DNA from: a virus
Taxonomy: Duplodnaviria > Heunggongvirae > Uroviricota > Caudoviricetes
Virus record (IMG/VR): IMGVR_UViG_2529292997_000011
Span: 1-19,442 of that record
DNA: 19,442 bases
Strand: one strand, 5' to 3'
A program made the translations under genes and the position numbers. Under the pieces are notes generated by a model, which did no database searches, had not been told where the DNA came from, and was given only the letters and a program-made list of their open reading frames with translations. Positions 4,026 to 19,442 of the stretch are shown piece after piece; positions within the stretch are counted from its first letter, which is position 1, and each line of letters opens with the position of its first letter.

Positions 4026-4032
4026 TCTCCGG

Positions 4033-4057: not shown

Positions 4058-4065
4058 ATGTTGAC

Positions 4066-5458: not shown

Positions 5459-5470
5459 ACTCGTCTCCTG

Positions 5471-5496
5471 AAAATAAAAAACCCGCCAGCGGCGGG
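5471..5496 (-). terminator. Intrinsic terminator-like hairpin immediately upstream of the major tail gene
   Basis: Minus-strand CCCGCC-GCU-GGCGGG followed by UUUUUUAUUUU. Confidence 0.5.
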
Positions 5497-5517
5497 TGGG
5501 TAAAATCATTAACGACC

Positions 5518-5862
5518 TCAGGCTATTACCTGAAATTCAAGCGTGGCTCTGCTCAGACGGGAGTCAGGATCATACCCCTGCGTTTTAGAAATAACGGAGG
5601 GTGCCAGTTTCCTTACTGCATCAAGCGCCTGCTCACGAATATCATCTGCGTCATCAGGTACTGTCGCCCAGACATCGATCTGCACGGTAATTCTGGATTC
5701 AGCCTGCCCATCAAGCACATCAGATGCCGTGTCAGACACCACAGAAAACACCAGCCACGGCGGAGATACCGCAGGCTTTCCCTCCGTCAGCGGGACCACA
5801 TAAGGATAAACCTGTCCTCCGGCCAGCTGAGACAACAGGGAATACAGTGTGCCCTCCCTCAT
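5518..5862 (-). CDS. Putative tail completion / tail terminator protein (assigned by position)
   Basis: 114-aa ORF overlapping the upstream gene by 4 nt, located between the HK97 gp10-like gene and the major tail gene. The call rests on synteny only. Confidence 0.55.
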   Translation of the reverse strand: MREGTLYSLLSQLAGGQVYPYVVPLTEGKPAVSPPWLVFSVVSDTASDVLDGQAESRITVQIDVWATVPDDADDIREQALDAVRKLAPSVISKTQGYDPDSRLSRATLEFQVIA

Positions 5863-6308
5863 TTACTTAAGACCTCATCAATAGCCTGATTCATTCGCTG
5901 TATGGCAACCTGCGCCGCCAGCTCCTCTGTCGTATCGAAAGCCGGGCGAATGAATGGATGCGCGGGCATGTTTATCGTTCCCAGCTCCACAAAGCGCCAG
6001 TAAAATGCATTTCGGGGATCGCTGGCTTTCATGCTGTTATCACTGTTTCCGGTTCGCAGGTTCCGTCCGCGAATGTGGACACCCGAGATAATTTCCCCCC
6101 GACGCTTTGAACGCTGAGTGAGAACAACCACATTTTTCTTCAGTTTCCCGGTTCGCTCCGGCGCACGTTCAACAACTGCATCCCGCATAACTTCAGCACC
6201 GGCACGGGTGGCATCGCGCAGAACCTTATTGTTTTCTGCCCTGCTGAGCGTCTCCAGATCCCGTGCAATATCCGCCAGGCCGGAAAAATCAAGACTGAAA
6301 TCCATCAC
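5859..6308 (-). CDS. HK97 gp10-family phage protein (head-tail joining / tail component)
   Basis: 149-aa ORF with the AHPFIRPAFD motif that I recognise as typical of the HK97 gp10 family; overlaps neighbours by 4 nt on both sides. Confidence 0.65.
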   Translation of the reverse strand: MMDFSLDFSGLADIARDLETLSRAENNKVLRDATRAGAEVMRDAVVERAPERTGKLKKNVVVLTQRSKRRGEIISGVHIRGRNLRTGNSDNSMKASDPRNAFYWRFVELGTINMPAHPFIRPAFDTTEELAAQVAIQRMNQAIDEVLSK

Positions 6309-6643
6309 ACATTCCCCTTCAGGCTGCAGAGTATTTCAAGCCGGGTAGCGCGTGCATCCGGTATTGGTGGACCTTCTATACCCAGAATGGCCCCTTTAAA
6401 TGCACCGGTCAGCACTTTCAGACGTGAAGTCGCTGTCACATCGCGCCGGAATCTCATCCAGACTCTGACCGTAGCCTGAGCGGTTTCTGCTCCGCCTGAG
6501 ATTATCTCCCTCCCGCTGATACCCTTAACTTCTGCCCATACGGTAGCTCCCTCCGTCACCGTCTCCACCGGATGCCCTGACGGAGAGCGGGCGGTGGTGA
6601 CATTCAGAATAATTACGCGATCACGTAATCTGCCCGCCTGCAT
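6305..6643 (-). CDS. Head closure / head-tail adaptor protein
   Basis: 112-aa ORF beginning MQAGRLRDRVIIL...; size and position between the connector gene and the gp10-like gene match head-tail adaptor genes of HK97-like phages. Confidence 0.65.
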   Translation of the reverse strand: MQAGRLRDRVIILNVTTARSPSGHPVETVTEGATVWAEVKGISGREIISGGAETAQATVRVWMRFRRDVTATSRLKVLTGAFKGAILGIEGPPIPDARATRLEILCSLKGNV

Positions 6644-6651
6644 GTCTCCTC

Positions 6652-6969
6652 CTACAAAGGAATAAAACGATAAGGCTCCAGCAGAGAAGAAAAACCAAAC
6701 GGGACTGGTGCCTTGCTGACATCTGAGGAATTTTCCCGGTTTTCGTACCAGTGCCCGACCAGCAACATGAGCGCCAGCAAAACATCATCAGCTATAAGCA
6801 CCCCTTCAGGATCACCTTCCGGCACCGTCTCCTCATAAAGCTTACGGTTGATAAAATTTTCTGCCTTGCGGCAGGCAGCCCGGAAATACAGCATCAGTAA
6901 CTCATCATCAGTTGCATCATCTGTATCAATACGGCACTGCGCCCTGAGTTTTTCCACTATTGCTGCCAT
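6652..6969 (-). CDS. gp6-like head-tail connector protein
   Basis: Track ORF 6652..7149 would overlap the capsid gene. The internal ATG at 6969 (MAAIVEKLRAQ...) has AGGAG at 6-nt spacing and lies after the terminator hairpins, so it is the likely start. First gene after the capsid gene, as in HK97. Confidence 0.65.
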   Translation of the reverse strand: MAAIVEKLRAQCRIDTDDATDDELLMLYFRAACRKAENFINRKLYEETVPEGDPEGVLIADDVLLALMLLVGHWYENRENSSDVSKAPVPFGFSSLLEPYRFIPL

Positions 6970-6980
6970 CAGAAACTCCT

Positions 6981-7024
6981 GCCCGCAACACTGTGCGGGC
7001 ATAAAAAAACCGCGTCGGCGCGGT
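6981..7024 (-). terminator. Tandem hairpins downstream of the major capsid gene; the first has a U7 tail
   Basis: Minus-strand ACCGCG-CCGA-CGCGGU followed by UUUUUUUA (7002-7024), then a second hairpin GCCCGCA-cagugu-UGCGGGC (6981-7000), then the RBS of the next gene. Confidence 0.5.
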
Positions 7025-7045
7025 CTGTAACTGAACAACGAGTGG

Positions 7046-8263
7046 TTATTTGCCAGTGAGCGCCTTGATGGCTGCCACATCTTCCAGCACACAGTCAAAA
7101 CGATGGAAAGCCAGAAATGCCACCTGATCAAACTCAGCATAACGCTCAACCAGACGTTTCAGTTCCATATAAGTAACGCGGCGAATGATAAAGCGGTTGA
7201 AATCCCCCAGGAAAATGAATTTTTTTCCGGTACCAATCCCGTCAATAGCCTGATCAATAACATAAGGGATCCCCAGCACAGTAGCCGGCGTACCGCCTGC
7301 AATATCCGGCAGCCATAACGGGCGTTTCTGTCCATCCTCCATCTCTTCAATAGTCTGCAATGTGGCATCATTGAATGCCCAGCGGTATTTCGGCCCACCA
7401 CGATATGCCGGATCAATGGCATGTTTCAGGGCATTCATTTCTTTCCAGGTGAAAGCGGCAGAGGCTGCAGTCTGGATGATTCCCGTCACCGACGCTGCCA
7501 GCCCTTTTGGCTGTAACGGTGATCCCGTTCCGGTCCCCTGAACCAGATATTTCGCCTCTCCACGACCAATACGCTGGGCAATACGGTTTGCCAGATAAGA
7601 TTCAATATCCACCCCACTGTCCTGGAGCAGCTCATTGGACACACGAATTATTTTTGATGACAGCTTTTTAGCCCCCAGAATAGCGGTCCCGAACGTCACA
7701 TCCTGTTCCGTTGCGGCTGTATTTTCCGCCAGCAGTTCGCCCTCTTCAGTCGTGCCATCAGACGTTGACCAGGTGATATCCTGCCCGGTTGATGTGGTCA
7801 GAAGTTGCGCAACACTGGCAATCCCGCCATAAGCCTTCATGGTGTCAATGATTTTGTTACGCATCTGCGTGGGCACCGTATATCCGCCCTGAGAATCCGT
7901 TGTTACACTCTGAGCCCGCAGTTCACGCATCAGATTACGCTCTTCAGCATTCAGTTCTGCAAATCCGGCACGCAGAAAACGGTTAAATGCCGCAGCGCGC
8001 TTCTCTTCCACCGCCTTTTTCCCGTTCTCCGCCTCATTATTCTGGCGCTCTTCCGGCCCGGACTCATCCACATATGCCTGATCCTGACGGCGCAACTCTT
8101 CTTCACGGGCGATTTGCTCATCCAGCGCATCCAGCTCAGCTTTCGCCCTGTTCCACTCTGCCCGTTGCTCATCAGTCCATGCGTTATCACCAATTTTTTC
8201 ATGCAGTGCACGCATATCCTTTGCAATGGTGTTTCGTTTTTGCTTCATCTCATGAAGTTTCAT
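7046..8263 (-). CDS. Major capsid protein, HK97 fold, with N-terminal delta/scaffold domain
   Basis: 405-aa ORF directly after the prohead protease. N-terminal approx. 100 aa are charged and coiled-coil (EELRRQDQAYVDE...), consistent with a delta domain; the remainder has the size and character of HK97-family capsid proteins. Confidence 0.9.
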   Translation of the reverse strand: MKLHEMKQKRNTIAKDMRALHEKIGDNAWTDEQRAEWNRAKAELDALDEQIAREEELRRQDQAYVDESGPEERQNNEAENGKKAVEEKRAAAFNRFLRAGFAELNAEERNLMRELRAQSVTTDSQGGYTVPTQMRNKIIDTMKAYGGIASVAQLLTTSTGQDITWSTSDGTTEEGELLAENTAATEQDVTFGTAILGAKKLSSKIIRVSNELLQDSGVDIESYLANRIAQRIGRGEAKYLVQGTGTGSPLQPKGLAASVTGIIQTAASAAFTWKEMNALKHAIDPAYRGGPKYRWAFNDATLQTIEEMEDGQKRPLWLPDIAGGTPATVLGIPYVIDQAIDGIGTGKKFIFLGDFNRFIIRRVTYMELKRLVERYAEFDQVAFLAFHRFDCVLEDVAAIKALTGK

Positions 8264-8277
8264 CGTCAGTAGTATCC

Positions 8278-8877
8278 TTATGCATTAAGAAGGGTCAAAA
8301 GACGCTCACGCGCCATTCGTTCGTTAACAGCTTTCTTCAGCGCACCACTCGCCCGCGCTTCCTGCCAGGCTTTCATTGAGCGGACACCAGAGTCTGCGTC
8401 CTGATAGGCCGGATATGTCACCGGGCTGACGTCATACAGACGAGAAATGCGCGTGATTTCCCGGATAACAATCCCCTCGTCGTCTTCATACCAGCTCTCT
8501 CCATCACGAGCGACGCGAAACGCGAACGAGGACTGATTAATGTCACCACGCAACATTGGTGACAGCACCAGGTCACAAATCGTCGGCGTATCCGGTGCAA
8601 CAATGTCGTAACGCAAACCACGTTCATCCACTGATAATGACAACGTGCCGGCAGAACTTCGTCCGAGAATGAAATTAGGATCATGATTAAACAATCCACG
8701 TACATCATCATTCAGCACGTCGTCAAAAGCCCCCGGCTTGATGATTTCACGAAATCCCCACAGAGGTTCTGAACGACTGTTAAATACCGAGCCATACCCC
8801 AAAATATGAGTCGGGGCATTATCATATTGTTCTGCCCGCACTTCCCCGCTGTAACAGCGCGTTTCACGGTCATTCAT
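8278..8877 (-). CDS. Prohead maturation protease (HK97 family)
   Basis: ORF 8278..8916; probable start at the ATG at 8877 (MNDRETRCYSGE...), 2 nt past the portal stop. Lies between portal and capsid genes, the canonical position. Confidence 0.8.
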   Translation of the reverse strand: MNDRETRCYSGEVRAEQYDNAPTHILGYGSVFNSRSEPLWGFREIIKPGAFDDVLNDDVRGLFNHDPNFILGRSSAGTLSLSVDERGLRYDIVAPDTPTICDLVLSPMLRGDINQSSFAFRVARDGESWYEDDEGIVIREITRISRLYDVSPVTYPAYQDADSGVRSMKAWQEARASGALKKAVNERMARERLLTLLNA

Positions 8878-10096
8878 CGTTCTTTTCCTCTTTGCCTTTC
8901 GTATCTTTAAAATCATTCAACGGATTTGCTGCATTTACGCTGACCAGCATTTCATCCAGACCATCAACCGGGTTCATGTCCTCAAATGCCCTCGCTTCAT
9001 TCCGGCTCATCCAGCCATCTGTAATGGCAAAGTGATAAAACTGCGCACGCTCCTGTGGAGTCCCGCGGAGCAATCCTGTAAGGTTGAAACGAACGTAATA
9101 CCCGGCAGCCCGTTCTGTGCGGGTAAACAGGCGACGGTTAAGCTCCTGCTCCCAGTTCGCAACCCAGGGCATCATCGTGTAGCGAACAAACTGAATCGCC
9201 TGCTGTGTAATATTCGAAAATGTGGCTTTTTCCAGGTCATTAATCATGTGCGCCGGGACATTAAAAATTCCGGCAATCATCGACCGGTTCAGCTTGGTCA
9301 TATCAATGATCTGAGCATCCACCGGAGAAACTGTCAGGGCACGGTAATCCAGTTGCGCAGGCAGCAGCATGGTTTTATTTTCCTGACTGCGAAGCGCTGT
9401 CACCGCCCGCTGCCACATATTCTTGAGCCTGCTCCAACTCTGTTCGTTCAGTTCATTTTTCACAGAAATAATCCCGGCAGGACGGGCATTACCGTTAAAA
9501 AAAGCACTGGTATACTGCTGACCACTCATTCCCATACCAATGGTTTCAGCATGCTGCATGATCGGACTCAGTCCCATTTTCTGATTGTTTCCCAGCGCCC
9601 TGATATGGATCATGTCGTCCGGACTTACCGCAAATGCACCCTCTTCGTTATACACACCGTAGGTATGACGCCCTCCAGTGTTAAGTAACGTGGTTTCCCA
9701 TGGCATACAGCATTCAAGACTGGTAACCTCGCCACGACGATTACGTTTCACCCACGTATAACCATTGCCCCACCCCAGCACATGACGCTGCTTCAGTTCC
9801 CGCCACTTATAGCTGGTCTGCCAGGCATTCGGTTCATCATGAACGAGCCAGAACAACGGGTGATCGCGTGCCGGCTGAACATGCTCATTCGTTTTTCGCA
9901 TCACATGCAGGGGCATCTGAGCCACACTGGATGAAATAACATAAATACAGGCATAGACAGCAGCCAGCCTCATGGACGTTTCCGGACTGACATACACATC
10001 CCGGGCAAAAATATTATCCGTCTCAGCGGCCTCTCCGGTTACCGGAACCGAGGGATTTTCCAGAGGCTCACTGCGAAACAGAGCATCAAGAAGCAT
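8870..10096 (-). CDS. Portal protein (HK97 family)
   Basis: 408-aa ORF downstream of the terminase large subunit; size and position are canonical. AGGAGAA sits upstream of the ATG. Confidence 0.9.
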   Translation of the reverse strand: MLLDALFRSEPLENPSVPVTGEAAETDNIFARDVYVSPETSMRLAAVYACIYVISSSVAQMPLHVMRKTNEHVQPARDHPLFWLVHDEPNAWQTSYKWRELKQRHVLGWGNGYTWVKRNRRGEVTSLECCMPWETTLLNTGGRHTYGVYNEEGAFAVSPDDMIHIRALGNNQKMGLSPIMQHAETIGMGMSGQQYTSAFFNGNARPAGIISVKNELNEQSWSRLKNMWQRAVTALRSQENKTMLLPAQLDYRALTVSPVDAQIIDMTKLNRSMIAGIFNVPAHMINDLEKATFSNITQQAIQFVRYTMMPWVANWEQELNRRLFTRTERAAGYYVRFNLTGLLRGTPQERAQFYHFAITDGWMSRNEARAFEDMNPVDGLDEMLVSVNAANPLNDFKDTKGKEEKNDE

Positions 10097-10226
10097 GTTT
10101 TCTCCTCATGGACACCACCAGTGCATAAAGCAGCAACAAACAGCCAGACAGCATCAGAGACGCTGGCAGACCTGCATACAGATAAACGCCAGCAGTGAGC
10201 AAACCGAAACCGATCAGCCCGGTCAT
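10086..10226 (-). CDS. Candidate 46-aa hydrophobic peptide between terminase and portal genes
   Basis: Hand-translated minus-strand ORF, below the track's 60-aa cut-off: MTGLIGFGLLTAGVYLYAGLPASLMLSGCLLLLYALVVSMRRKHAS. Almost entirely hydrophobic with a basic tail. Weak RBS; its 3' end overlaps the portal RBS and start. Confidence 0.25.
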   Translation of the reverse strand: MTGLIGFGLLTAGVYLYAGLPASLMLSGCLLLLYALVVSMRRKHAS

Positions 10227-10243
10227 ATCAGTAATAAGCTGTT

Positions 10244-12001
10244 TCACAGAATTAACAGGTCCTCATCAGGATCAAGCGTGGACAGAAAGTCATTCACGCC
10301 CCCGCCATTTACCAGAAAGCGGCTCATGGCTGTAAAAAGCGCAACAGGGCCGTCGATTTTGGCTTCCGGCGTGGATTTATTCGGGAAGATGTTGTCGTTT
10401 TTGTCCGGTTTTACAGTAACGTTAGACATCATCCAGTTCATGACCGGATGATTGCTGTGATGGAAACGCCCGGCATAAACCAGTGATTCCGTTTCCTTCA
10501 TGGCCTCTGACAGATTGCGGACCGTCTGCGGAACCTCCACCAGCGGTATCCCTTCTTCAGCCAGTGCCAGACTGAACTGCATTGCGCTCCACGGGTCAAA
10601 TCCCAGTTCCCTGAGGTTTTCACCGCCAATCCATTCCAGTAAGTCACTTTTTATCTGAGCATGATCGATAACATCACCATCCGTCAGGATGAGCTTATCC
10701 ATCTCCGCCCACTTCCGGTAAAGTTCTGCCTGCTGCCGCGAGCATCGTTCCAGCCGTCCTTCCGGAAGCCAGAATTTAAAATCAGCATGAACATGTCCGT
10801 TATCGGTTCGCCAGAGTTTTGCCGCCGCACAGATATCAATCTTATGAGCAAGGTCGACGCCGACCCACATGGGATATGTTTTCAGCTCATGTTGTGGAGC
10901 AATGTATTCGCACTTCTCCCACTTAATCATATCCATCCAGGCAGATTCGGCAGTGACCCACACATTCATGTGTTTGGTAAAAAAATTCACCCGCGCAGAG
11001 ACCTGTTCTTTCGCTTTTTTCGCCAGGCGACGCAGATCATCCCAGCGTTTACAGATGCCCAGGCCGGGATTCGCTTTCTGCCAGACCGTTTCATCAAACG
11101 GATCATCTCCCTCATCGAGGGTGTAAATAATCGCAAAGTAGGAGTCGTCTTTTACCGCGCCCTCCACGTCGCTGTTATAGCCACGCAATACCTTGATGGC
11201 GTAATCACGCTGCTCGTAACAAATCCCTTCCTTGTTAAACCCTGCCGTGGTGATACCAAATAAAAGGGACTGCAGACGGGCACCGGTTGCCGTTTCCAGA
11301 ACGTCCCACACGTCACGAGTTTTATGTGCATGCAGCTCATCAATAATGGCGCAGTGGATGTTCAGACCATCCAGGTTGTTTGCATCCGAAGAAAGCGGTT
11401 CAAATTTTGATGCGCTCTGCTCCTGGTAAATCGCCAGCTTGTTGAAATCAAACAACCGCCCGAGTGTCGACCGGGCTTTTCTGACCATATTTTTGGCGTC
11501 TTCAAACACGATTCTGGCCTGGTCACGCGTGGTTGCGGCTGAATACACCTCAGCTCCGCCTTCACCATCTGCCCCCGTCATATACAGGCCGATACCCGAT
11601 GACAGAGTTGATTTTGCGTTTTTACGGGCGACTTCGTTGTACGCCGTCCGGAACCGGCGCACCATCACCGGACGTCCGCTGCCATCGCTGCGCATGACAA
11701 CTTCCCCGGTCTCTTCATTGACCAGCGGAATGACAAAACCAAAAATATTAATGAGGATAAATACATGCCAGTCCATCAACTCAATGGGCTGGCCTGCCAG
11801 CGCCCCTTTTACATGAGGCACAAATTTGTAGAAATTCAGGATGTGCTGCGCACGGGGTTCACTGAAATAAATCCCCCGCTCTTCGCCGTACTTCAGATCA
11901 TCAAGAAAACGCTGGCAGGCCAGGCGGACAAATTCGCCAGCAACAATTTCTCCTGCAACAACACGTTCGGCGTAGCGGATCCCGTCAGCCACTTTTGCCA
12001 T
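10244..12001 (-). CDS. Terminase large subunit
   Basis: 585-aa ORF whose ATG overlaps the stop of the small-subunit gene (ATGA). P-loop-like segment VARKNAKST near the N-terminus and an acidic nuclease-like C-terminal half, followed by the portal gene. Confidence 0.9.
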   Translation of the reverse strand: MAKVADGIRYAERVVAGEIVAGEFVRLACQRFLDDLKYGEERGIYFSEPRAQHILNFYKFVPHVKGALAGQPIELMDWHVFILINIFGFVIPLVNEETGEVVMRSDGSGRPVMVRRFRTAYNEVARKNAKSTLSSGIGLYMTGADGEGGAEVYSAATTRDQARIVFEDAKNMVRKARSTLGRLFDFNKLAIYQEQSASKFEPLSSDANNLDGLNIHCAIIDELHAHKTRDVWDVLETATGARLQSLLFGITTAGFNKEGICYEQRDYAIKVLRGYNSDVEGAVKDDSYFAIIYTLDEGDDPFDETVWQKANPGLGICKRWDDLRRLAKKAKEQVSARVNFFTKHMNVWVTAESAWMDMIKWEKCEYIAPQHELKTYPMWVGVDLAHKIDICAAAKLWRTDNGHVHADFKFWLPEGRLERCSRQQAELYRKWAEMDKLILTDGDVIDHAQIKSDLLEWIGGENLRELGFDPWSAMQFSLALAEEGIPLVEVPQTVRNLSEAMKETESLVYAGRFHHSNHPVMNWMMSNVTVKPDKNDNIFPNKSTPEAKIDGPVALFTAMSRFLVNGGGVNDFLSTLDPDEDLLIL

Positions 12002-12483
12002 CAGTCTCTCGCTTTTAAAAGCTCCGCCAGCGGATCAACATCATCCGGTCCGGCGATATTTACTTTAGCCCGGCTTGCCGGTGACATACCAAACTCTGCA
12101 AGCATTGCCCGGATCCGCTTCCAGGCATCCGCTTTCATTGCCGCCGCGGGGTGCGCCTTAATCAGTACATCACCGCTCTGCGTTTCCGTGCGGTAGGTAT
12201 ACCCCTCAACATCGAGTGTTTCGCAGTGATGCCGATATTCGGTGTAGGCTTCCACCAGCAACTCGAGCGCACGCGCATCAAGCTGAGAAATGATCCCTTC
12301 CGCATTCAGCTCTTCCGCCATTCGCCTGAACCAGTACTTCCCCTGAGCCCCTAAATGCTGCGGAATTTTAGGAAGACCTTTTTCATCCTTTTTAGCGGTT
12401 TTTTTGTGGTCTTTAACGGGGCGCTTTGAGGGGTTGCCTCGAATCAAATGCAGGCGTGGCGGGGTTTTCGGAGGTCCTGACAT
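12001..12483 (-). CDS. Terminase small subunit (P27 family-like)
   Basis: 160-aa ORF with a basic N-terminus (RGNPSKRPVKDHKKTAKK), immediately upstream of and translationally coupled to the large subunit, and downstream of an HNH gene. This is the HK97-type arrangement. Confidence 0.8.
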   Translation of the reverse strand: MSGPPKTPPRLHLIRGNPSKRPVKDHKKTAKKDEKGLPKIPQHLGAQGKYWFRRMAEELNAEGIISQLDARALELLVEAYTEYRHHCETLDVEGYTYRTETQSGDVLIKAHPAAAMKADAWKRIRAMLAEFGMSPASRAKVNIAGPDDVDPLAELLKARD

Positions 12484-12631
12484 AATCGGTCTTACCTATC
12501 AATCGTTTGTTCACATTTCCAAAAAAAAGTTTTCGAACCTGCGGCGATGTGAGGAAGGGTCAGGCGGCGGTACTGAGCAGCCAGGGCTGCAGGGATTTGA
12601 CCCACCCCTCCCCTACAGATGGGAACTGTTA
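12484..12631. other. Non-coding gap between the HNH gene and the terminase small subunit; candidate cos / packaging region
   Basis: 148-bp gap containing an A8 tract and a GC-rich segment (GGGTCAGGCGGCGGTACTGAGCAGCCAGGGCTGCAGGG). In HK97-like phages cos lies between the HNH gene and the terminase small subunit. Inference from position only. Confidence 0.3.
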
Positions 12632-12982
12632 TCAATTGATGCGTTCGCGCGCTGTTTTTGCTTTATGGCAGGGCCAGCACAGACTCTGCAGGTTACTGTC
12701 TGCATCCGAGCCACCATGAGCTTTCGGAATGATGTGGTCCACAGTTCTGGCTTCAACGGCTCTCCCATTGCGCAGGCAGTTCTGACACAGATCATTATCA
12801 CGCTTCAGTATGCGCGCACGTATGGCATCCCATTTCGAGCCATAGCCACGCTGGTGGCGACTCAGTCCGCGCTGATGCTGTACCCATCCTTCGCCACGAT
12901 GTTTATCGCAGTAACCAGAACTGTCTGTGGTTGTACCTGCACATCCACGTTTACGGCAGGCTCGTGGGATTAGTGCTGGCAT
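12632..12982 (-). CDS. HNH endonuclease (terminase-associated)
   Basis: 116-aa ORF with a cysteine pair near the N-terminus (CRKRGCAG...CDKH), the HNH core DHIIPKAHGG...N, and a C-terminal CWPCH. Confidence 0.85.
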   Translation of the reverse strand: MPALIPRACRKRGCAGTTTDSSGYCDKHRGEGWVQHQRGLSRHQRGYGSKWDAIRARILKRDNDLCQNCLRNGRAVEARTVDHIIPKAHGGSDADSNLQSLCWPCHKAKTARERIN

Positions 12983-13120
12983 GTTTCGCCCTTATATAAA
13001 TCAAAAGTGACCTGCATTGAGTATCTCCATGAAATAGATTTGCCGCTGATATGAGCCAGATCAATAGACTTCATGAGCTAACGGGTGTAGATATTACTTT
13101 TTACTTCAGAGGGTTAACTC

Positions 13121-13660
13121 ATGGATATTAAGGATAAAATCAATACCATTTTGTTATGTGACATTGCCATCCACCTAGGTATCGAAACTGATATTGATCC
13201 ACAGCTTGTAAAATATGCTGTGTCATCTGGTAATGATTGGGTTATGAAGGCCGAATATTCACATTTGGATGTTGATGAACCAAGTAAAGAAGATCGTGAT
13301 TTTGTTACTGCTGTCTTGAATATGTACCGCGGACTTTCCAATGCTTTCAGGAAACTTAGTGATGACGAGCAAAAAGAATTAGTCCGTGACCATCATCTAA
13401 AAATACATGATGGGGAAATTCAGCTCCCAGGTTTCGACGGTCATAATGAATGCGATTACTTCAGTATCATTGAGGCATATCAGAAAATTGATCGCTTCCC
13501 CGAACAGAAACAGCCCATTGCCAATACTCATTCACGTACAGAACATCTCTATAACGCAATGCTTGATGAGTTTAAGAAAATTGACGCTGTAAATCGAAGC
13601 TGGGATTTATCGAAGGAAGAACTGGCATCCATTCTTTCCACAGCTCCACGCAGTTTCTAA
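13121..13660 (+). CDS. YfbU-family (UPF0304) protein; cargo gene transcribed opposite to the late operon
   Basis: The only convincing plus-strand gene in the window. RBS AGAGGG 8 nt before the ATG. Motifs LNMYRGL, PGFDGHNECDYFSIIEAY and HSRTEHLYNAML align by eye with the corresponding segments of E. coli YfbU as I remember it. Markedly AT-rich compared with flanking phage genes. Confidence 0.7.
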   Translation: MDIKDKINTILLCDIAIHLGIETDIDPQLVKYAVSSGNDWVMKAEYSHLDVDEPSKEDRDFVTAVLNMYRGLSNAFRKLSDDEQKELVRDHHLKIHDGEIQLPGFDGHNECDYFSIIEAYQKIDRFPEQKQPIANTHSRTEHLYNAMLDEFKKIDAVNRSWDLSKEELASILSTAPRSF

Positions 13661-13665
13661 GTGCT

Positions 13666-13932
13666 TTAGGCGGGTTTCCAACCCGCCTTATTATGCTCGT
13701 ATATAGAGAAGGAAGCACCCAAATTAACCAGCGCGGATTTCTTTTCCTCAATACGGCTGTTAAGTTCAGCAACTGCATGCGGGCGTATGGCCTCAAGAAA
13801 AGCACTATATTGATAGGCAGACTGGATTGTCACACCAAGCCCTGCACCACTTTCCAGTATACCTTTCTGTCGCTGTAGCTCTTTCATCTCGTTATAGATG
13901 TAATGTGCGTTACTTAGGTTTTCTACGTTCAC
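13666..13932 (-). CDS. Hypothetical 88-aa protein (GTG start), convergent with the YfbU-like gene
   Basis: ORF-track ORF; I checked that the initiator is GTG with AGGAAG about 10 nt upstream. No family recognised. Its last codons are encoded by the terminator hairpin, so it may be a real small cargo gene or an artefact. Confidence 0.4.
   Translation of the reverse strand: MNVENLSNAHYIYNEMKELQRQKGILESGAGLGVTIQSAYQYSAFLEAIRPHAVAELNSRIEEKKSALVNLGASFSIYEHNKAGWKPA
13667..13689 (+). terminator. Hairpin terminator at the 3' end of the YfbU-like gene
   Basis: GGCGGGU-uucca-ACCCGCC followed on the plus strand by UUAUUAU. The minus-strand side lacks a U-run. Confidence 0.45.
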
Positions 13933-14087
13933 GCCCTAAGTTCTTCCTGCAGTTAGCCTGCACTGATTTGTTATGCGCCAATATGTCCCGCTTCGTCTGT
14001 TGCATTATCATAAGTAATAGCGTAGGTTGACACCTTGGCTCTCTTTCGCCACCGGCGAATCTTTAGCGGATTATCCTTGGCCGGTTT

Positions 14088-14570
14088 TTATCTGAGACAT
14101 TGCTCACGAATGTATAGCTGTGCCCCTTCCAGTTGCTTCTGCATCGTCATCAACCGTTCTCTGAGGGTGAAATAATCCCGTTCAGCGGTGTCTGCCAGTC
14201 TGGGGCTGGTTGCATTATCCACGCTGGTGGGTCCGGTGGCTTCACGCACGGCTGCGGAGCAACTGGCATTGACCCGCAGGCGCTTACGACCAGCGGCAAC
14301 ATCAGCGCGCAGAGTTTCATTTTCAGCTTTCGCATTGGCTAATTCTCTCGAGTACTTTGCATCGAGCGCAGCAACATCACGCTGACGCTGCTGCATGTCA
14401 GCGATGGTGGCGGTCAGCTGCTTCAGCTCACTGACTTTTTTATCACGCTGTTCTTTGTAGGTGATGGCGTTATCACGGTAATGATTGACCGCCCACGACA
14501 GGCAGACGATGATGCAGATAACCAGAGCATAAATAATCGCGGCGACTCTGCTCACTGATCTATTCCCCAA
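14088..14570 (-). CDS. Rz: Rz i-spanin (lambda Rz-like)
   Basis: Translation (...[38 protein letters not shown]...[35 protein letters not shown]) closely resembles lambda Rz from memory. Track start at 14570 is TTG; a GTG at 14555 overlapping the endolysin stop gives a lambda-like MSRV... N-terminus. Confidence 0.9.
14150..14335 (-). CDS. Rz1: Rz1 o-spanin lipoprotein, embedded in the +1 frame of Rz
   Basis: 61-aa ORF wholly inside Rz with lipobox LVVSAC and the proline-rich segment [30 protein letters not shown], which I recognise as lambda Rz1-like. Confidence 0.85.
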
Positions 14571-15085
14571 CAGGCTAATGCGCTTTCCTGGTCACGACGA
14601 ATAACCTGTCCATAGCAGTTATTTGAACGTATGCGGCAATCGCGCCCACCATCTTTTATCCACCAGCGAATCGCCTCGCATGCGCCCTTACGATCACCAG
14701 CATTCAGCCGCTTATAAAACGTCGATGGAAAACACTTACCGGGGCCAATGTTATAGGGACAAAATGACGCGATACCCGCTTTTTGTGGTTCGGTCAGTGG
14801 TACTTTAATATTGCGCTCCACCCATGCCAGCGCCTTATCACGCTCAATGGCGTTGACCTGGTCGCATTTTTCCTTCGACAGTTTCATACCGGGAAAAACG
14901 GGTTTTCCATCCACCATCGTGGCACCCCGACAGATGGTCCAGATGCCGGAACCATCGCGGTATGCCGTTGTGTGGTTACCTTCTTTTTCATCCAGAAACT
15001 GGTCGAGAATATCAGGCGCGGGCGCACCGACGGCAATCAGTGCCAGAACGGCAGCCGACAGGCCGTATCTGATTTTTGCGTTCAT
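14552..15085 (-). CDS. Endolysin, lysozyme-type with N-terminal signal-anchor-release (SAR) domain
   Basis: 177-aa ORF with a hydrophobic N-terminus ([16 protein letters not shown]) followed by a lysozyme-like domain. Resembles from memory the SAR endolysins of phage-21-type cassettes such as E. coli Qin RrrQ. Paired with a pinholin upstream. Confidence 0.9.
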
Positions 15086-15148
15086 GGATATTTATCAGGA
15101 TTTATCGGTTTCTGCCCACGGACAGGTTTATCTGTTCCGGTCAGTGAC

Positions 15149-15499
15149 TTAAGGTTGTGATTCCGGAGGAGTCTTCAGAGAACCAGTAATTCTTCCTGGT
15201 AGCTTTCCTTTGTAGGTTATCCACACATTCTGCGCCTCTAAAATTACGGGGCGCTTTTCCGGCGACTGCTCATCCCCTTCACATAACCCGGCAGCAACAT
15301 CCAGGAAGACCTGTCTGATGCTCCTTCTGGCTGCTGCCTCATAAAACTCCAGCGCGGCACCTTCAACACGGTCCAGCGAGATGTCCAGGTCAAAAATTTC
15401 GCCGTCAAAGCGTTTTTTGTCCCGTAACGCTAAAGTTACCGTAACTTTATTCTCAAAATTGCGGATCCCTTTCACAATCAGTTCATAGTTTTGAGTCAT
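15149..15499 (-). CDS. Lysis-cassette protein of unknown function (YdfR-like)
   Basis: 116-aa ORF between holin and endolysin, beginning MTQNYELIVKGIRNFENKVTVT.... The position matches ydfR in the Qin essQ-ydfR-rrrQ cassette; the family assignment is from memory. Confidence 0.65.
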   Translation of the reverse strand: MTQNYELIVKGIRNFENKVTVTLALRDKKRFDGEIFDLDISLDRVEGAALEFYEAAARRSIRQVFLDVAAGLCEGDEQSPEKRPVILEAQNVWITYKGKLPGRITGSLKTPPESQP

Positions 15500-15503
15500 T
15501 GAA

Positions 15504-15719
15504 TTACTCTCCCCGTGCAGCCTTACGCTTGTCTTCTCTGATTTTGAAGTACAGATTTGTCAGATAAGTCAGGAAGCCCAGAACCAGACTCCCCAGTACA
15601 CCAATCGCAGCCCACTGTGACGGACTGACCTGATCAAGCCACTGTAAAAACCAGTAGCCAGCACTGCCTGCGGAGGTGCCGTAGGCAATGCCCGTTGAAA
15701 TTTTGTCCATGGATTTCAT
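15504..15719 (-). CDS. S: Class II holin, phage 21 S-like pinholin with dual-start motif
   Basis: 71-aa [74 protein letters not shown], near-identical to S21 as I remember it. M1 and M4 form the Met-Lys-x-Met dual start. Strong RBS GGAGGTGAGG. Confidence 0.9.
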
Positions 15720-15780
15720 AGCCTCACCTCCGCAAATAACGGATGGCGTAGTTTTACACTGAGAAATGAAAGGGATTTGA

Positions 15781-15803
15781 AAAGAAAAACCCGCAAAAGC
15801 GGG
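15781..15803 (-). terminator. Intrinsic terminator downstream of the tRNA cluster and upstream of the holin
   Basis: Minus-strand CCCGC-UUUU-GCGGG followed by UUUUUCUUUUC. Confidence 0.5.
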
Positions 15804-15959
15804 CGAAACGATATATACAGTAAGGGAAGCACTCTATCCAACAAACCACCCACAGTTAATCGGAATAAAAGCAGAGTGCTTATGAATGATCGCCTGCCCG
15901 AAGGTTAGTATTTCTGCACAGCAATTTTGCAAAAAAAGCGATCATTCATAACTTAAACG

Positions 15960-16003
15960 TCTTTCAGTCACTCCGGGATTTCCCATCATCGCAGACTGAA
16001 AGA
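15960..16003. repeat. 10-bp perfect inverted repeat with 24-bp spacer just 3' of the tRNA cluster
   Basis: TCTTTCAGTC (15960-15969) and GACTGAAAGA (15994-16003) are exact reverse complements. Confidence 0.3.
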
Positions 16004-16010
16004 CTCTAAC

Positions 16011-16085
<75 letters not shown>

Positions 16086-16088
16086 ATA

Positions 16089-16164
<76 letters not shown>

Positions 16165-16166
16165 AC

Positions 16167-16243
16167 TGGACCGCCACCGGGGACTCGAACCTCGCACACT
16201 CAACTTAAAGGGTTGACGCTCTTTCCTGATGAGCTAGTGGCGG
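16167..16243 (-). tRNA. tRNA-like gene, non-canonical; anticodon UUU (Lys) if the standard register holds; possibly a pseudo-tRNA
   Basis: Reverse complement CCGCCAC-UA-GCUC-AUCAGGAAA-GAGC-G-UCAAC-CCUUUAA-GUUGA-GUGUG-CGAGG-UUCGAGU-CCCCG-GUGGCGG-U-CCA. Acceptor, D and anticodon stems pair, but position 33 is C rather than the near-invariant U, and the T stem has an A:C mismatch. Confidence 0.5.
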
Positions 16244-16244
16244 C

Positions 16245-16320
16245 TGGTGGCCCTTGCTGGATTTGAACCAGCGACCTGGCGATTATGAGTCGCTCGCTCT
16301 CACCACTGAGCTAAAGGGCC
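16245..16320 (-). tRNA. tRNA with anticodon CAU, tRNA-Ile2 (ileX-like) or elongator tRNA-Met
   Basis: Reverse complement GGCCCUU-UA-GCUC-AGUGGUGA-GAGC-G-AGCGA-CUCAUAA-UCGCC-AGGUC-GCUGG-UUCAAAU-CCAGC-AAGGGCC-A-CCA. Resembles E. coli ileX from memory but diverged. Separated from the neighbouring tRNA by 1 nt. Confidence 0.8.
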
Positions 16321-16329
16321 GGGAGCAGA

Positions 16330-16358
16330 ATAATAATGGTGCGTAATTAATTCTGCAA
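16330..16358 (-). promoter_or_regulatory. Near-consensus sigma-70 promoter driving the tRNA cluster
   Basis: Minus strand: TTGCAG (16358-16353), 17-nt spacer, TATTAT (16335-16330), about 9 nt before the 5' end of the first tRNA. Confidence 0.55.
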
Positions 16359-16369
16359 TCTCATCCGTT

Positions 16370-17419
16370 TCAAACGATTAAATCCTGAACTTCCCTGACT
16401 GTCTGCTCAAAACGTCCGGTCTCCAGTTCAACGCCAATCGCACGACGCCCGAGCGCCAGTGCAGCTTTTACCGTTGAACCTGAGCCCATAAAAAAATCTG
16501 CAACCAGGTCACCCGGACGACTGCTTGCGCTGATTATCTGCTGCAGCATTTCTGCCGGTTTTTCGCACGGATGTTTCCCGGGATAGAACTGCACCGGTTT
16601 ATGTGTCCACACATCCGTGTACGGCACCTGCGCCGTCACACCAAAATACCGCCGCAGATGCTTATATTCACTCTGCAGCTCCACATACTGCCGGTTCAGT
16701 GACGTATACGTATCCACCAGCTGGTGGTGGGGCTTTTCCAGTTCTCCCCGCTGATGTTTCTCTTCTGCCACCCGGGCAAACAGCGACTGTAATTTCAGAT
16801 AATCGCTTTCGTTCGGTAGCTGCCACTGACTGGCACTGAACCAGTGCGACACCATGTTTTTCTTTCCTGTGGCATCTGCAATCTGTTTTGCCGTTATCCC
16901 CAGGGCCGCGCGCGCATCACGAAAGTAAGAAATCAGCGGGGCCATCACATGCTGTTTCAGTGCACTGCCCTTCGCCGCATACCCGGCATCTTTCGGACGA
17001 TACGGCCCCTGATAATGTTCCGCGAACAGAATGCGCTCTGTGGCGGGGAAATACGCCCGCAGGCTTTCCTTGTTGCATCCGTTCCAGCGTCCGGACGGCT
17101 TCGCCCAGATAATATGGTTCAGCACACTGAAGCGTTCACGCATCATGATTTCGATATCAGATGCCAGGCGATGACCACAGAACAGGTAAAGACTTCCGGC
17201 AGGTTTCAGCACCCGCCAGAACTGCGCCAGACACTGGTCCAGCCACTTCAGGTAATCATCGTCGCCCTTCCACTGGTTATCCCAGCCCTCGGGCTTCACT
17301 TTAAAGTACGGCGGGTCCGTGACTATCAGGTCAACAGAATTTTCGGGTAACGACCGGATAAATTCCAGGCAGTCGGCGTTGATTAACTCACAACTGGATA
17401 TTTTTACAGTGTTAAGCAT
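16370..17419 (-). CDS. Orphan DNA methyltransferase, beta-class order (motif IV DPPY before motif I FxGxG); N6-adenine or N4-cytosine
   Basis: 349-aa ORF with VTDPPYF near the N-terminus and DFFMGSGST near the C-terminus. No adjacent restriction endonuclease gene is visible. Confidence 0.85.
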   Translation of the reverse strand: MLNTVKISSCELINADCLEFIRSLPENSVDLIVTDPPYFKVKPEGWDNQWKGDDDYLKWLDQCLAQFWRVLKPAGSLYLFCGHRLASDIEIMMRERFSVLNHIIWAKPSGRWNGCNKESLRAYFPATERILFAEHYQGPYRPKDAGYAAKGSALKQHVMAPLISYFRDARAALGITAKQIADATGKKNMVSHWFSASQWQLPNESDYLKLQSLFARVAEEKHQRGELEKPHHQLVDTYTSLNRQYVELQSEYKHLRRYFGVTAQVPYTDVWTHKPVQFYPGKHPCEKPAEMLQQIISASSRPGDLVADFFMGSGSTVKAALALGRRAIGVELETGRFEQTVREVQDLIV

Positions 17420-17451
17420 GGATCATTAAGCCTGTCTCTGATAGGCTCATT

Positions 17452-17470
17452 CTGCTTTTGCGCAAAGCAG
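17452..17470. promoter_or_regulatory. 19-bp palindrome in the methyltransferase 5' leader; candidate operator or RNA hairpin
   Basis: CTGCTTT-TGCGC-AAAGCAG: 7-bp perfect arms, about 35-50 bp upstream of the methyltransferase ATG at 17419. Confidence 0.35.
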
Positions 17471-17555
17471 ATGGGCCTGAGGTTTGCTTGTGACCCCAAC
17501 GCATGAGCAGATGGCTGGCAGGTGCCGCTAACACCCACCAGCCGCCCATTACCAC

Positions 17556-17583
17556 AAATAAAAAAGCCTTCAGGGCTGAAGGC
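17556..17583 (-). terminator. Terminator-like hairpin overlapping the stop codon of the small upstream gene
   Basis: Minus-strand GCCUUCA-gccc-UGAAGGC followed by UUUUUUAUUU; the TGA stop of the 65-aa ORF lies inside the hairpin. Confidence 0.45.
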
Positions 17584-17766
17584 GTCTGTAACAACCGAAC
17601 TGATAATCTGCCAGACCCGCCATAACAAGCTGAGTCAGTATTAACTGGCAGCGTTCACGTGAAAGGTAAGTATTCTGCGCAATCTCCCCGACGGTCGCCG
17701 GTTCGGTGACGCTTAATTCATTAAACACCACTCTGGCGGTTTCGGTCATATCCTGCTGTTTTAGCA
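17570..17766 (-). CDS. Small 65-aa protein, possible helix-turn-helix regulator
   Basis: Track ORF 17570..17848; the internal ATG at 17766 (MLKQQDMTETARVVFNELSVTEPATVGEIAQNTYLSRERCQLILTQLVMAGLADYQF...) is preceded by AAGGAAAAG and lies downstream of tR'. The HTH assignment is a guess from residue pattern. Confidence 0.45.
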
Positions 17767-17884
17767 TGTCTTTTCCTTTTCCGGTTAACGTGACACACCA
17801 ATAACTCTTGTCGAAAAAGCCAGCAAGCTGAAAGACCCGTATTCGCAACCACCAGCGCGTTTACTGTACTGACGCGATTTCAGT

Positions 17885-17910
17885 CATAAAAAACCCGCCA
17901 GGCGGCGGGG
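17885..17910 (-). terminator. tR'-like intrinsic terminator about 45-65 nt downstream of the pR' start
   Basis: Minus-strand CCCGCC-gccu-GGCGGG followed by UUUUUUAUGA. Confidence 0.55.
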
Positions 17911-17949
17911 TGTAAAAAATCTTCTAACGTCAGGCATAAAACGCCCATC

Positions 17950-17990
17950 GTTAGAGCAAATTTACCACAGATTCGGGAAAAATCAACAAC
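17950..17990 (-). promoter_or_regulatory. Late promoter pR' with lambda-like -10 and pause-inducing region (qut-like)
   Basis: Minus strand: TTGATT (17986-17981), 16-nt spacer, TAAATT (17964-17959), then TTGCTCTAACGATGGGCG. From memory this is strikingly like lambda pR' (GGTAAATTTGACTCAACGATGGG). It begins 5 nt after the Q stop codon. Confidence 0.55.
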
Positions 17991-17991
17991 A

Positions 17992-18813
17992 CTATCGCGT
18001 TACCCTCTTTAACTGCCGCTCCGCCCATGCCTCTTCAATGTCAAACCGAACCACCAACGTATCGTAAAAGCGTTTCACTGATTTTTTCCACGTATCAAGC
18101 GTGATAGCACTCGTCACTTTGCGTATGGCATTAAATGCCTCCGTTGATGGTAGTCTTTCACAGCCACGACCACCACAACGCTGGCAGTCTCTGATAACAG
18201 GCATACCACGTTTTACCGACTCTTCACGATGAATGGCAACACCACGCCCACGACAGTCTTTACAGGCAGTGGAAATCTCCCCCTTCCCTTTACATTCAGG
18301 ACAAGACACTTTCACCACCTCCCGATTTTTTTTCCATTCTTCCCAGTAAGACGGATACACACCTTTCGTACACTTTGCCCATACCGGCGGCTTACCATCC
18401 GGATACTGGACCTTGTTTGTAAAAACTACGCTTTCAATAAATTTTTCCCCATAGCAACAAGGGCACTGCTTTTTACTCGCTGCGCTGCGGGCATAATCCT
18501 CAAAAGCGTACGAAGCCATAATGCGCATCACTACCGGTTTTATTTCTGCCGGGAGTTTTCTTAACGCCGCCACGCGATCACACCGACTGAGTGCATATTC
18601 TGTCAGCAATTCTGTTGCCCGCTCTCTGTCATTCATACTAATGCCCATTTTCCCAAGGAACGCAGAAAACCCCATCTCAGCCCGATTCTGTGTCATGCCC
18701 TGCGCGGCCATCACATCAGTGATACTCAGCGCATCTTTCGACGTTGAGGCCGATGCATCAGTCAGGCCGGGGGATTTTGGGGAGTAGTATTTCGGTAAAT
18801 CTTCCAGTTTCAT
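17992..18813 (-). CDS. Q: Late-gene antiterminator Q (lambda Q family, with an internal cysteine-rich insertion)
   Basis: 273-aa ORF. N-terminus (YYSPKSPGL...TDVMAAQGM) and C-terminus (RLPSTEAFNAIRKVTSAITLDTWKKSVKRFYDTLVV...RVTR) resemble lambda Q from memory. Central zinc-finger-like CPECKGKGE...CKDCRGRG...CQRCGGRGC. Followed directly by pR'. Confidence 0.85.
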   Translation of the reverse strand: MKLEDLPKYYSPKSPGLTDASASTSKDALSITDVMAAQGMTQNRAEMGFSAFLGKMGISMNDRERATELLTEYALSRCDRVAALRKLPAEIKPVVMRIMASYAFEDYARSAASKKQCPCCYGEKFIESVVFTNKVQYPDGKPPVWAKCTKGVYPSYWEEWKKNREVVKVSCPECKGKGEISTACKDCRGRGVAIHREESVKRGMPVIRDCQRCGGRGCERLPSTEAFNAIRKVTSAITLDTWKKSVKRFYDTLVVRFDIEEAWAERQLKRVTR

Positions 18814-19190
18814 TTTTTGACCTGCCCTTCAAGCATTATGGGGTAAATCTTCACCCCCAGACGTCCACCAGATACTGGCTGAGCACGAACGATATTGATT
18901 TCATCAAACTGCTCATCGTCCATTAGCAACCCCGCATGCGTCAGCGCATCCAGCGGCGCTTTCAGAATATTGTCCAGGTCACGGCGGCGCTTATCCGGTG
19001 GTTCTGCAATAATTTTTATTGCCAACCTTCCGGACAGGCTTAATTTCAGCCGCTGCTGGCGAACAATAAGCGCCACTGCCCGGCGATAACGCTCCCCGGC
19101 TTTTGATACAAAATATGTGCTGCCACGACGACGCCAGTAAGTGTTCACCGTTGGCGGGTAAGGCAAAACAAATTCTATGCGTTCAGTCAT
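18810..19190 (-). CDS. rusA: RusA-family Holliday junction resolvase
   Basis: 126-aa ORF with LPYPPTVNTYWRRRG and DKRRRDLDNILKAPLDALTHAGLLMDDEQ; the aspartate cluster and surrounding sequence resemble E. coli RusA from memory. Overlaps the Q start by 4 nt. Confidence 0.85.
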   Translation of the reverse strand: MTERIEFVLPYPPTVNTYWRRRGSTYFVSKAGERYRRAVALIVRQQRLKLSLSGRLAIKIIAEPPDKRRRDLDNILKAPLDALTHAGLLMDDEQFDEINIVRAQPVSGGRLGVKIYPIMLEGQVKK

Positions 19191-19421
19191 TTATGCTTTC
19201 CACTTCAAAACACCCGAATTTCTCGCGTGCATTAAAAAACGAATCAGCAACAACAGCTGGCTGCCGTGTTTTTCTTCAAAATCTTTTACCCCGGCGTGTA
19301 GTTCGCTATGGCATTTACGGCACAGCGGAATAACAAACAAATCATCAGCCTTTGTTCCCATCCCTCCCAGTCCATGACCAATGATGTGATGCGGATCATC
19401 TGCCTGATTGCCACACGTCAT
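19191..19421 (-). CDS. nin-region protein, DUF1364 / YbcO-like putative Zn-binding nuclease; N-terminus may extend beyond the chosen start
   Basis: 76-aa ORF with HHIIGHGLGGMGTKADDLFVIPLCRKCHSELH; the His/Cys pattern and the position just upstream of rusA match ybcO-like genes of lambdoid nin regions. Only 21 nt of window remain upstream of the chosen start. Confidence 0.5.
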   Translation of the reverse strand: MTCGNQADDPHHIIGHGLGGMGTKADDLFVIPLCRKCHSELHAGVKDFEEKHGSQLLLLIRFLMHARNSGVLKWKA

Positions 19422-19442
19422 GCATTTCTGCGTTTTTACCCA

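Follow-up and report, generated by a model that had tools for sequence, protein, structure and literature searches.

M.EcoGII, a beta-class DNA methyltransferase of 349 amino acids (aa) encoded on a prophage of E. coli O104:H4 C227-11, methylates adenine whatever its sequence context, and is identical at 333 of 349 positions to M.EcoGI, both enzymes having been reported as non-specific (PMC5778455). It is unexpressed in normal growth and makes cells sick when expressed constitutively (PMC5778455), and a review pairs it with Mom as silent in lysogens and toxic (PMC12707154). In Mu-like prophages, the gene com lies upstream of the non-specific adenine methyltransferases Hin1523, Hia5 and Nme1821 (PMC3299994, PMC6483171), while in the lambdoid prophages of Stx phages the slot for morons after pR'/tR' carries stx, tRNAs and small RNAs (sRNAs) (PMC4104026). 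A small gene of helix-turn-helix (HTH) type beside a methyltransferase gene, with a dyad nearby, is also the layout of restriction-modification systems with a controller (C) protein, such as C.PvuII, C.AhdI and C.Csp231I. The window considered here is the whole 19,442-nt stretch of a Caudoviricetes record (IMG/VR record IMGVR_UViG_2529292997_000011, positions 1 to 19,442), in which a lambdoid prophage of E. coli carries, all on the minus strand, a methyltransferase gene of the M.EcoGI/GII family, a conserved and structured 5' leader RNA directly in front of it, and a gene for a 65-aa protein further upstream. We consider it fairly probable that these elements form a late-operon cassette, in which a promiscuous, DNA-protecting methyltransferase is made only in lytic growth and the leader limits or gates its expression. 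The conserved structured leader and its usual companion, the small open reading frame (ORF), seem to have no description so far, either in Rfam or in the literature searched. The elements of the cassette are the following:

16370..17419, minus strand: N6-adenine DNA methyltransferase of the M.EcoGI/GII family, 349 aa, beta class (PF01555)
17420..17557, minus strand: structured 5' leader RNA of the methyltransferase, ~135 nt, with helices P1-P4 (alignments and covariance model R1)
17503..17549, minus strand: P1, a long hairpin beginning AUGGGCGGCUGG, with 6 bp, a 4-nt internal loop on the 3' side and 12 bp
17486..17495, minus strand: 5' strand of P2, GGUCAC-AAGC, which pairs with 17431..17421
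17421..17431, minus strand: 3' strand of P2, GCUUAAUGAUC, which ends 1 nt before the AUG and holds a conserved GATC (17421-17424)
17444..17477, minus strand: P3, GGCCCAU (17477..17471) with AUGAGCC (17450..17444), enclosing P4
17452..17470, minus strand: P4, an apical hairpin with a 7-bp stem and a 5-nt loop, corresponding to the palindrome of a preliminary description of the locus
17570..17767, minus strand: gene of the 65-aa predicted winged-helix protein (phrog_331), an ORF with its own AGGA Shine-Dalgarno sequence

The methyltransferase matches PF01555 (N6_N4_Mtase) with an E-value of 2.3e-44 over residues 29-340, and carries DPPY at residues 35-38, followed by FMGSG near residue 310, as in the beta class; domain and motif order together bear out the beta-class enzyme of 349 aa, with DPPY then FxGxG, that the preliminary description had proposed, and with no restriction gene beside it the enzyme is an orphan. 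Over its full length it has 331 of 349 residues (~95%) identical to M.EcoGII, whose sequence was taken from a machine-read copy of Table S1 in the PMC11551740 supplement, so that errors of optical character recognition account for a few mismatches. The enzyme of phage 1720a-02, cited as a very similar homologue of M.EcoGII (PMC5778455), shares 95% identity with that of the window. The window enzyme has the length of M.EcoGII and M.EcoGI, identical N- and C-terminal regions, the same DPPY...FxGxG order and the same prophage location; it differs from them by ~15-18 substitutions, which fall mostly in the central target-recognition region and the linker. Judged by this similarity, it is almost certainly a non-specific N6-adenine methyltransferase, and the target specificity, which had been left open, is largely answered by the ~95% identity to M.EcoGII. 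The enzyme itself is thus already known, and the cassette is extremely common, while the published work on M.EcoGII and M.EcoGI describes neither the upstream ORF nor the leader (PMC5778455).

Conservation of the leader sets in abruptly at UGUGRAAAUGGGCGG, right after a variable upstream hairpin, and continues unbroken to the AUG. With the window as reference, the leaders of loci from Salmonella, Enterobacter, Mixta, Rosenbergiella, Buttiauxella, Providencia, Morganella and viral contigs are 68-84% identical to that of the window, whereas the four-fold synonymous sites of the methyltransferase gene at the same loci are saturated, with 24-39% identity. The conservation of the leader equals that of the first and second codon positions in the methyltransferase gene and, by this comparison, the leader is under strong purifying selection. 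In none of the 85 distinct sequences is it separated from the methyltransferase start, and 18 of its 52 unpaired columns are conserved at 97% or more. A coding role was considered for a 45-aa ATG ORF (MGGWWVL...) lying inside a 60-aa TTG ORF (17412..17594) and was rejected, as homologues carry 1-nt indels; the commonest leader variant has an in-frame TAG at codon 8 of this only candidate ORF. With Rfam 15, only tRNAs pass the gathering score in the window and nothing overlaps the leader even at E-values up to 10. A literature search for a leader or sRNA at this position, which included the anti-sRNAs of Tree et al. 2014 and a preprint on the Pas sRNA, found nothing relevant.

The structure of the leader was drawn by hand as four helices, modelled with Infernal and re-tested on an independent, sequence-only MAFFT alignment. 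It consists of the 5' hairpin P1, followed by a second domain which is closed by P2 and in which P3 is stacked under P4, and this architecture is reproduced by single-sequence folds of divergent members. P1 was recovered in 81 of 85 independent minimum-free-energy folds; 7 of the 12 pairs of its upper stem show compensatory changes, and at two loci (L225 and L236) nearly the whole stem is swapped for a different, still complementary sequence. In P2, the bases at about -12 to -2 of the methyltransferase AUG, which has no Shine-Dalgarno sequence, are paired, and compensatory changes are seen in three pairs (e.g. AAGC/GCUU to GGA..AAC/GUU..UCC); L236 lacks the GATC and has a different sequence at P2, and still forms a closing helix that abuts the AUG. 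In P3, a change from CAC/GUG to CAU/AUG preserves pairing. P4, recovered in 73 of 85 single-sequence folds, has a nearly invariant base (GCUU/AAGC), while its upper stem varies yet remains paired, as UUA..UAA, as an A-bulge with UG..CA, or as UA..UA. This hairpin had been described as a 19-bp palindrome in the leader, about 40 bp upstream of the methyltransferase; its location in the leader holds, whereas the sequence CTGCTTTTGCGCAAAGCAG (17452-17470) is an imperfect palindrome of 7-bp arms, CTGCTTT/AAAGCAG, around TGCGC, and ends 32 nt before the ATG. On its own, a 7-bp hairpin would be unremarkable; what makes this one notable is that it is conserved between genera. The palindrome forms the tip of a conserved RNA structure and is very probably not a DNA switch.

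Scanning IMG/VR with the window methyltransferase returned only relatives with 95-100% identity, which are useless for covariation, and the diversity needed was supplied by a scan with a Providencia homologue. In a MAFFT alignment of the 85 distinct sequences, which is blind to structure, 90.3% of cells pair, as opposed to 30-45% when the partners are slid, and 14 of the 39 pairs are changed on both sides. The cells with such double changes number 135, compared with 56.4 +/- 6.2 in shuffled alignments; none of 500 shuffles reaches the observed value and the slid registers give at most 49. In the alignment fitted to the model, 93.2% of cells are paired and 15 of 39 pairs have changes on both sides (150 cells). 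RNAalifold, when run on the raw MAFFT alignment, recovers only parts of P1-P3, which is due to 1-nt register shifts. Many of the pairs are of the G-U kind on the sense strand; since the opposite strand would have C-A instead, the structure belongs to the mRNA. The covariance model R1 finds the leader directly 5' of the methyltransferase in every locus of Enterobacteriaceae or Erwiniaceae type that has a leader, matches 64 of 80 viral contigs of Providencia/Morganella type at E <=7e-17, and matches the shortened leaders of Photorhabdus and Xenorhabdus weakly. At these last loci (L056-L082 and L237-L251), the small ORF is present at 39-48% identity, and the short leader, ~100 nt 5' of the methyltransferase, has a P1-like hairpin and a short downstream hairpin in place of P3/P4, which makes it a separate variant of the element.

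Two further observations concern sequence motifs of the leader. The GATC at 17421-17424, a Dam site at -5 to -2 of the AUG, is kept in nearly all leaders, and in leaders of Providencia type a second GATC is found on the facing strand of P2. A parallel with the Dam-dependent control of Mu mom is conceivable, and the site may simply be part of P2. The conserved UGUG at the 5' end of the leader (17551-17557) could also form 4 bp with the CACA in the 5' strand of P2 (17489-17492); this pairing would be mutually exclusive with P2 and could be an anti-sequestering switch.

The cassette lies in the setting of a lambdoid late operon under the control of Q, with the antiterminator gene, a late promoter candidate and an intrinsic terminator in this order, of which the promoter is the weaker element. 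The features around the cassette are:

17992..18813, minus strand: antiterminator Q gene, ORF of 273 aa (Pfam PF03589 Antiterm, E 1.3e-50)
17959..17986, minus strand: pR'-like late promoter candidate, with -35 TTGATT (17986..17981), a 16-nt spacer and extended -10 TGGTAAATT (17967..17959)
17894..17909, minus strand: strong tR'-like intrinsic terminator, CCCGCCGCCTGGCGGG then TTTTTTAT (terminator scan)
17556..17583, minus strand: second intrinsic terminator, with a stem at 17583-17566 and a T-run, overlapping the stop codon of the small ORF (terminator scan)
16011..16320, minus strand: four tRNA genes, namely CAU Met/Ile2-type, Lys-UUU, Thr-UGU and Gly-UCC (ARAGORN and Rfam)

The promoter candidate was found by eye, has only 8 of 12 consensus positions and is absent from the list of the promoter scan; its position just after Q suggests that TTGATT/TGGTAAATT is pR'. 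The same scan gave no promoter-like site in or before the leader, nor before the small ORF. As had been proposed, the small ORF does end in a terminator of its own. An equivalent hairpin with a U-rich tract precedes the leader in most Enterobacteriaceae loci; as a universal companion of the leader it was rejected, since it is absent from the Providencia/Morganella group. With two terminators upstream and no promoter-like site, the methyltransferase would be silent in the lysogen. The four tRNA genes belong to the same late transcription unit. The Q protein (17992-18813) also carries, besides its Q domain, a DnaJ-type CXXCXGXG zinc-finger signature (PF00684, E 3.4e-6, which is under the Pfam cutoff).

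The small ORF was located correctly in the preliminary description except for one nucleotide, its start being at 17767 and not 17766, and its AGGA Shine-Dalgarno sequence stands 6-7 nt before the ATG. Its product belongs to phrog_331 (E 7.8e-38), a family with no assigned function, and NCBIfam gives nothing significant for it. The suggestion that it could be an HTH protein fares unevenly: the Pfam match to TrmB is below threshold (18.3 bits, with a cutoff of 25.6), whereas AlphaFold, run on a shallow alignment, predicts a helix-helix-helix-strand-strand winged helix, with a predicted local distance difference test score (pLDDT) of 87.3 for the best model. Foldseek against the PDB returns generic winged-helix matches only (TM-scores of 0.7-0.78, best E 2e-3, none at E <=0.001), among them IclR/MarR regulators, dimerisation domains of O-methyltransferases and SelB, and a sequence search of solved structures gave no meaningful match. 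The family is acidic to neutral, with net charges of about -4 to +3. The invariant residues are MT..A, C...LTQ...AGL and one Arg/Lys in the C-terminal tail; this sole conserved basic position is away from the helices, and overall the conservation is a weak signature for a nucleic-acid-binding surface. Two cysteines are present, one of which is invariant. Public entries (e.g. NP_543075.1 in phiP27) call the protein a 'TrmB family transcriptional regulator' despite the sub-threshold score, a naming habit which the present result corrects, and many of the database entries carry spurious N-terminal extensions that give lengths of 72-106 aa.

Homologues of the small ORF encode 63-67 aa, with identity down to 39%, and stand at a fixed distance 5' of the methyltransferase. 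They precede it in ~60 of 80 species-level loci (from Escherichia to Xenorhabdus, Photorhabdus and Providencia), and among viral contigs with the small ORF, the methyltransferase follows 348 nt downstream in 68 of 80, at least 5 of the other 12 seeming to end too soon to tell. The small ORF, leader and methyltransferase therefore do constitute a conserved module, as had been suggested, while the control logic proposed for it, a controller protein acting on an operator, does not survive (see below).

When used as a query, a 1.7-kb stretch covering the cassette recurs with 100% identity in at least 12 complete E. coli chromosomes, and gives matches in 2721 of 5426 complete E. coli genomes, at a median of two places per matching genome. 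It is 87-94% identical in many Stx2 phages, in phage 1720a-02 and in phiP27, where Q stands on one side of it and the tRNA/stx genes on the other (in many Stx2 phages it precedes stx2). This stretch is a mobile moron cassette. On one chromosome (L252), Q, small ORF and methyltransferase are 100% identical to those of the window and are followed by Ile, Arg and Arg tRNAs and a gene for a SASA-family esterase; since the two diverge in their tRNA set, there is a mosaic joint right after the methyltransferase gene. In phiSTEC1575-Stx2k (L004, 2438-2620), the small ORF, the terminator and P1 are kept and the breakpoint falls inside the leader, the rest of which is replaced, together with the methyltransferase, by AT-rich DNA with a gene for an AraC-family regulator. 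The position after pR'/tR' and the logic of Q-dependent read-through are those of the lambdoid moron slot of Stx phages (PMC4104026); the difference is that this cassette has its own conserved leader and is found beyond Stx phages, in Salmonella, Klebsiella, Erwinia, Providencia and others. Four methyltransferase loci of enterobacterial type (L016, L026, L035 and L036), with 76-98% identity to the window protein, are labelled Geobacteraceae metagenome-assembled genome, Vagococcus sp., uncultured Collinsella sp. and Chryseobacterium sp.; these labels probably reflect contamination or mis-binning and not real host range.

In a late-operon cassette of this kind, only RNA polymerase modified by Q would read through both terminators into the methyltransferase gene. 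The leader would then act on the mRNA, gating or limiting translation of the toxic enzyme and possibly also affecting processing or stability, and the progeny DNA, heavily adenine-methylated, would resist restriction in the next host. The idea that a methyltransferase in the late region shields progeny DNA had been put forward earlier and is still plausible. The 65-aa protein, which has a good ribosome-binding site of its own, would be an optional accessory, its most attractive role being that of a Com-like factor with the leader or the enzyme as its target; this step is the weakest, because the cassette works without the small protein in some phages. The com-mom operon of phage Mu offers the best analogue, by functional resemblance only, the parts being unrelated. 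In both cases a late, host-toxic, broad-spectrum adenine modifier is preceded by a gene for a protein of ~60 aa, and a structured mRNA segment lies at the translation start of the enzyme. Com, however, is a Cys4 zinc finger, whereas the window protein is a predicted acidic winged helix with two cysteines and no homology to it; com overlaps the enzyme gene, while here a terminator and 135 nt intervene; the small gene is dispensable here in some phages; and the methyltransferases of the Mu-like prophages are of another class than the window enzyme. Membership in the com-mom family is thus excluded, because of the Cys4 zinc finger of Com and the unrelated parts. Adjacency and shared orientation of the small gene and the methyltransferase are conserved, and with an intrinsic terminator between them, their co-transcription would depend on read-through by Q.

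Several observations weigh against a leader that gates translation with the help of the small protein. P2 is short, and the single-sequence folds recover its strict consensus pairs in no more than 37 of 85 cases. Neither the AUG nor the A-rich beginning of the reading frame takes part in pairing, and initiation might therefore proceed unhindered by the structure. Most of the covariation goes back to a few switches between clades (Enterobacteriaceae versus Providencia/Morganella type, together with L225 and L236), so that few independent events lie behind it, and the sequences that served to test the structure are also those from which it was drawn. Much of the leader is invariant in sequence, which fits an RNA that binds a protein or ligand and would also fit a site acting at the DNA level. 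As for the small protein, the other four of the five AlphaFold models have low confidence (pLDDT 59-69), and ~15 species-level loci, as well as phages Flotzy and Eeyore, keep leader and methyltransferase without the small ORF, of which a search of the whole Flotzy genome found no homologue. Whatever the small protein may do to the leader can therefore be dispensed with; that some phages manage without the protein speaks for an independent function of the leader.

A bolder form of the proposal is that the leader represents a new class of cis-regulatory RNA that gates promiscuous adenine methyltransferases in phages of Enterobacterales, with the winged-helix protein or the methyltransferase as partner, and that it is convergent with Com/mom. 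An M.EcoGII-type methyltransferase is known to methylate RNA. We regard this broader reading as speculative and rather unlikely in its entirety.

P1 might instead be a site of RNase III type, at which cleavage would separate the upstream message from that of the methyltransferase and set its stability, P2 having no gating function. Such sites are found in the early mRNAs of T7 and in the N leader of lambda, and P1 may resemble them: it stacks ~18 bp with an asymmetric internal loop and is the most robust helix of the leader by the count of folds given above. It is also the sole part kept in the short Xenorhabdus/Photorhabdus leaders and in the remnant of phiSTEC1575. Sites of this type need little sequence conservation, yet P1 and P2-P4 are nearly invariant at many positions, and the explanation leaves no role for P2-P4 abutting the AUG. 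As a replacement for a gating leader we therefore consider it improbable; as an additional role of P1, it is compatible with the late-operon cassette rather than exclusive of it.

In the controller-protein model, which was that of the preliminary description, the 65-aa HTH protein would bind the palindrome as a DNA operator and control transcription of the methyltransferase in the manner of C proteins. The tight synteny of small ORF and methyltransferase, the predicted winged helix and the dyad symmetry of the palindrome are in agreement with it. However, there is no restriction gene, as had been noted already (the neighbours are Q, the tRNAs, a holin, a DUF1327 protein and a lysozyme), and no Xre-type (HTH_3-like) domain; C-protein systems differ from the present locus in having an endonuclease, an Xre-type HTH and a pair of C-boxes, and here the dyad is within an RNA structure. 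Both the small gene and its terminator are upstream of the palindrome, which is inside the transcribed leader and has no promoter-like site nearby; no C-box was found upstream of the small gene and no second box in the window. Its recurrence, which the preliminary description had proposed to check, was searched for in the 19.4-kb window only, where it occurs as a single copy (chance expectation 0.01); allowing up to 3 mismatches brought no relative, and the core GCTTTNGCGCNAAAGC has no second copy there. The palindrome is the tip of a covarying structure of four helices with G-U pairs, and its upper stem has, in some clades, a one-sided A bulge or a U-G pair. It is unchanged in phages without the small ORF, e.g. 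Flotzy, and unrecognisable in Xenorhabdus and Photorhabdus, which keep the small ORF. The charge of the small protein and its lone conserved basic position, in the C-terminal tail, do not favour the model either. The control logic is rejected because every testable feature that defines a C protein and its C-box fails, and we consider the model very unlikely.

It is very unlikely, too, that the leader block acts at the DNA level or as an independent gene, whether as a site of recombination or a mosaic joint, as a site bound by a DNA-binding protein or as a free-standing sRNA gene. Boundaries of the cassette do fall here, phiSTEC1575-Stx2k being broken mid-leader, and sRNAs are known from the part of the prophage that follows pR' (PMC4104026), but the block has no promoter-like site before it and no terminator at its end, running instead into the AUG; its G-U pairs are strand-specific and its compensatory changes long-range, and it never parts from the methyltransferase start among the 85 distinct sequences. 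Least probable of all is a riboswitch that senses a metabolite such as S-adenosylmethionine (SAM) or S-adenosylhomocysteine and tunes the SAM-consuming enzyme directly 3' of it, since, although highly conserved unpaired columns beside covarying stems are typical of binding pockets, the same pattern fits a protein-binding site, no similarity to an Rfam riboswitch appears at E-values up to 10, no expression platform is evident beyond P2, and Xenorhabdus and Photorhabdus are without the P3/P4 domain.

Downstream of the tRNAs, the window encodes a holin of P21 type, the DUF1327 protein and the lysozyme. The spacer between tRNAs and holin (15789-16004) contains a perfect inverted repeat of 14 nt (15880-15893 / 15938-15951), a second one of 11 nt (15959-15969 / 15994-16004) and a terminator-like hairpin (15807-15789), which is also terminator-like when read on the plus strand. 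No Rfam match was found in this spacer. Convergent prophage sRNAs have been described by Tree et al. in a slot that matches it (PMC4104026).

M.EcoGII is a widely used reagent and a model of wholesale evasion of restriction by phages, and the published accounts considered do not describe how phages restrain the enzyme beyond its silence in the lysogen. From Escherichia to Providencia, and in about half of the complete E. coli genomes, the methyltransferase gene is nearly always accompanied by a strongly constrained, structured leader, and in most cases by a small gene for a predicted winged-helix protein as well. The leader is a concrete candidate for a regulatory element and a candidate new RNA motif, absent from Rfam and from the literature searched. 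This suggests that lambdoid phages and Mu have arrived independently at the same design, in which a small upstream gene and a folded mRNA precede a late, toxic, broad-spectrum modifier of DNA.

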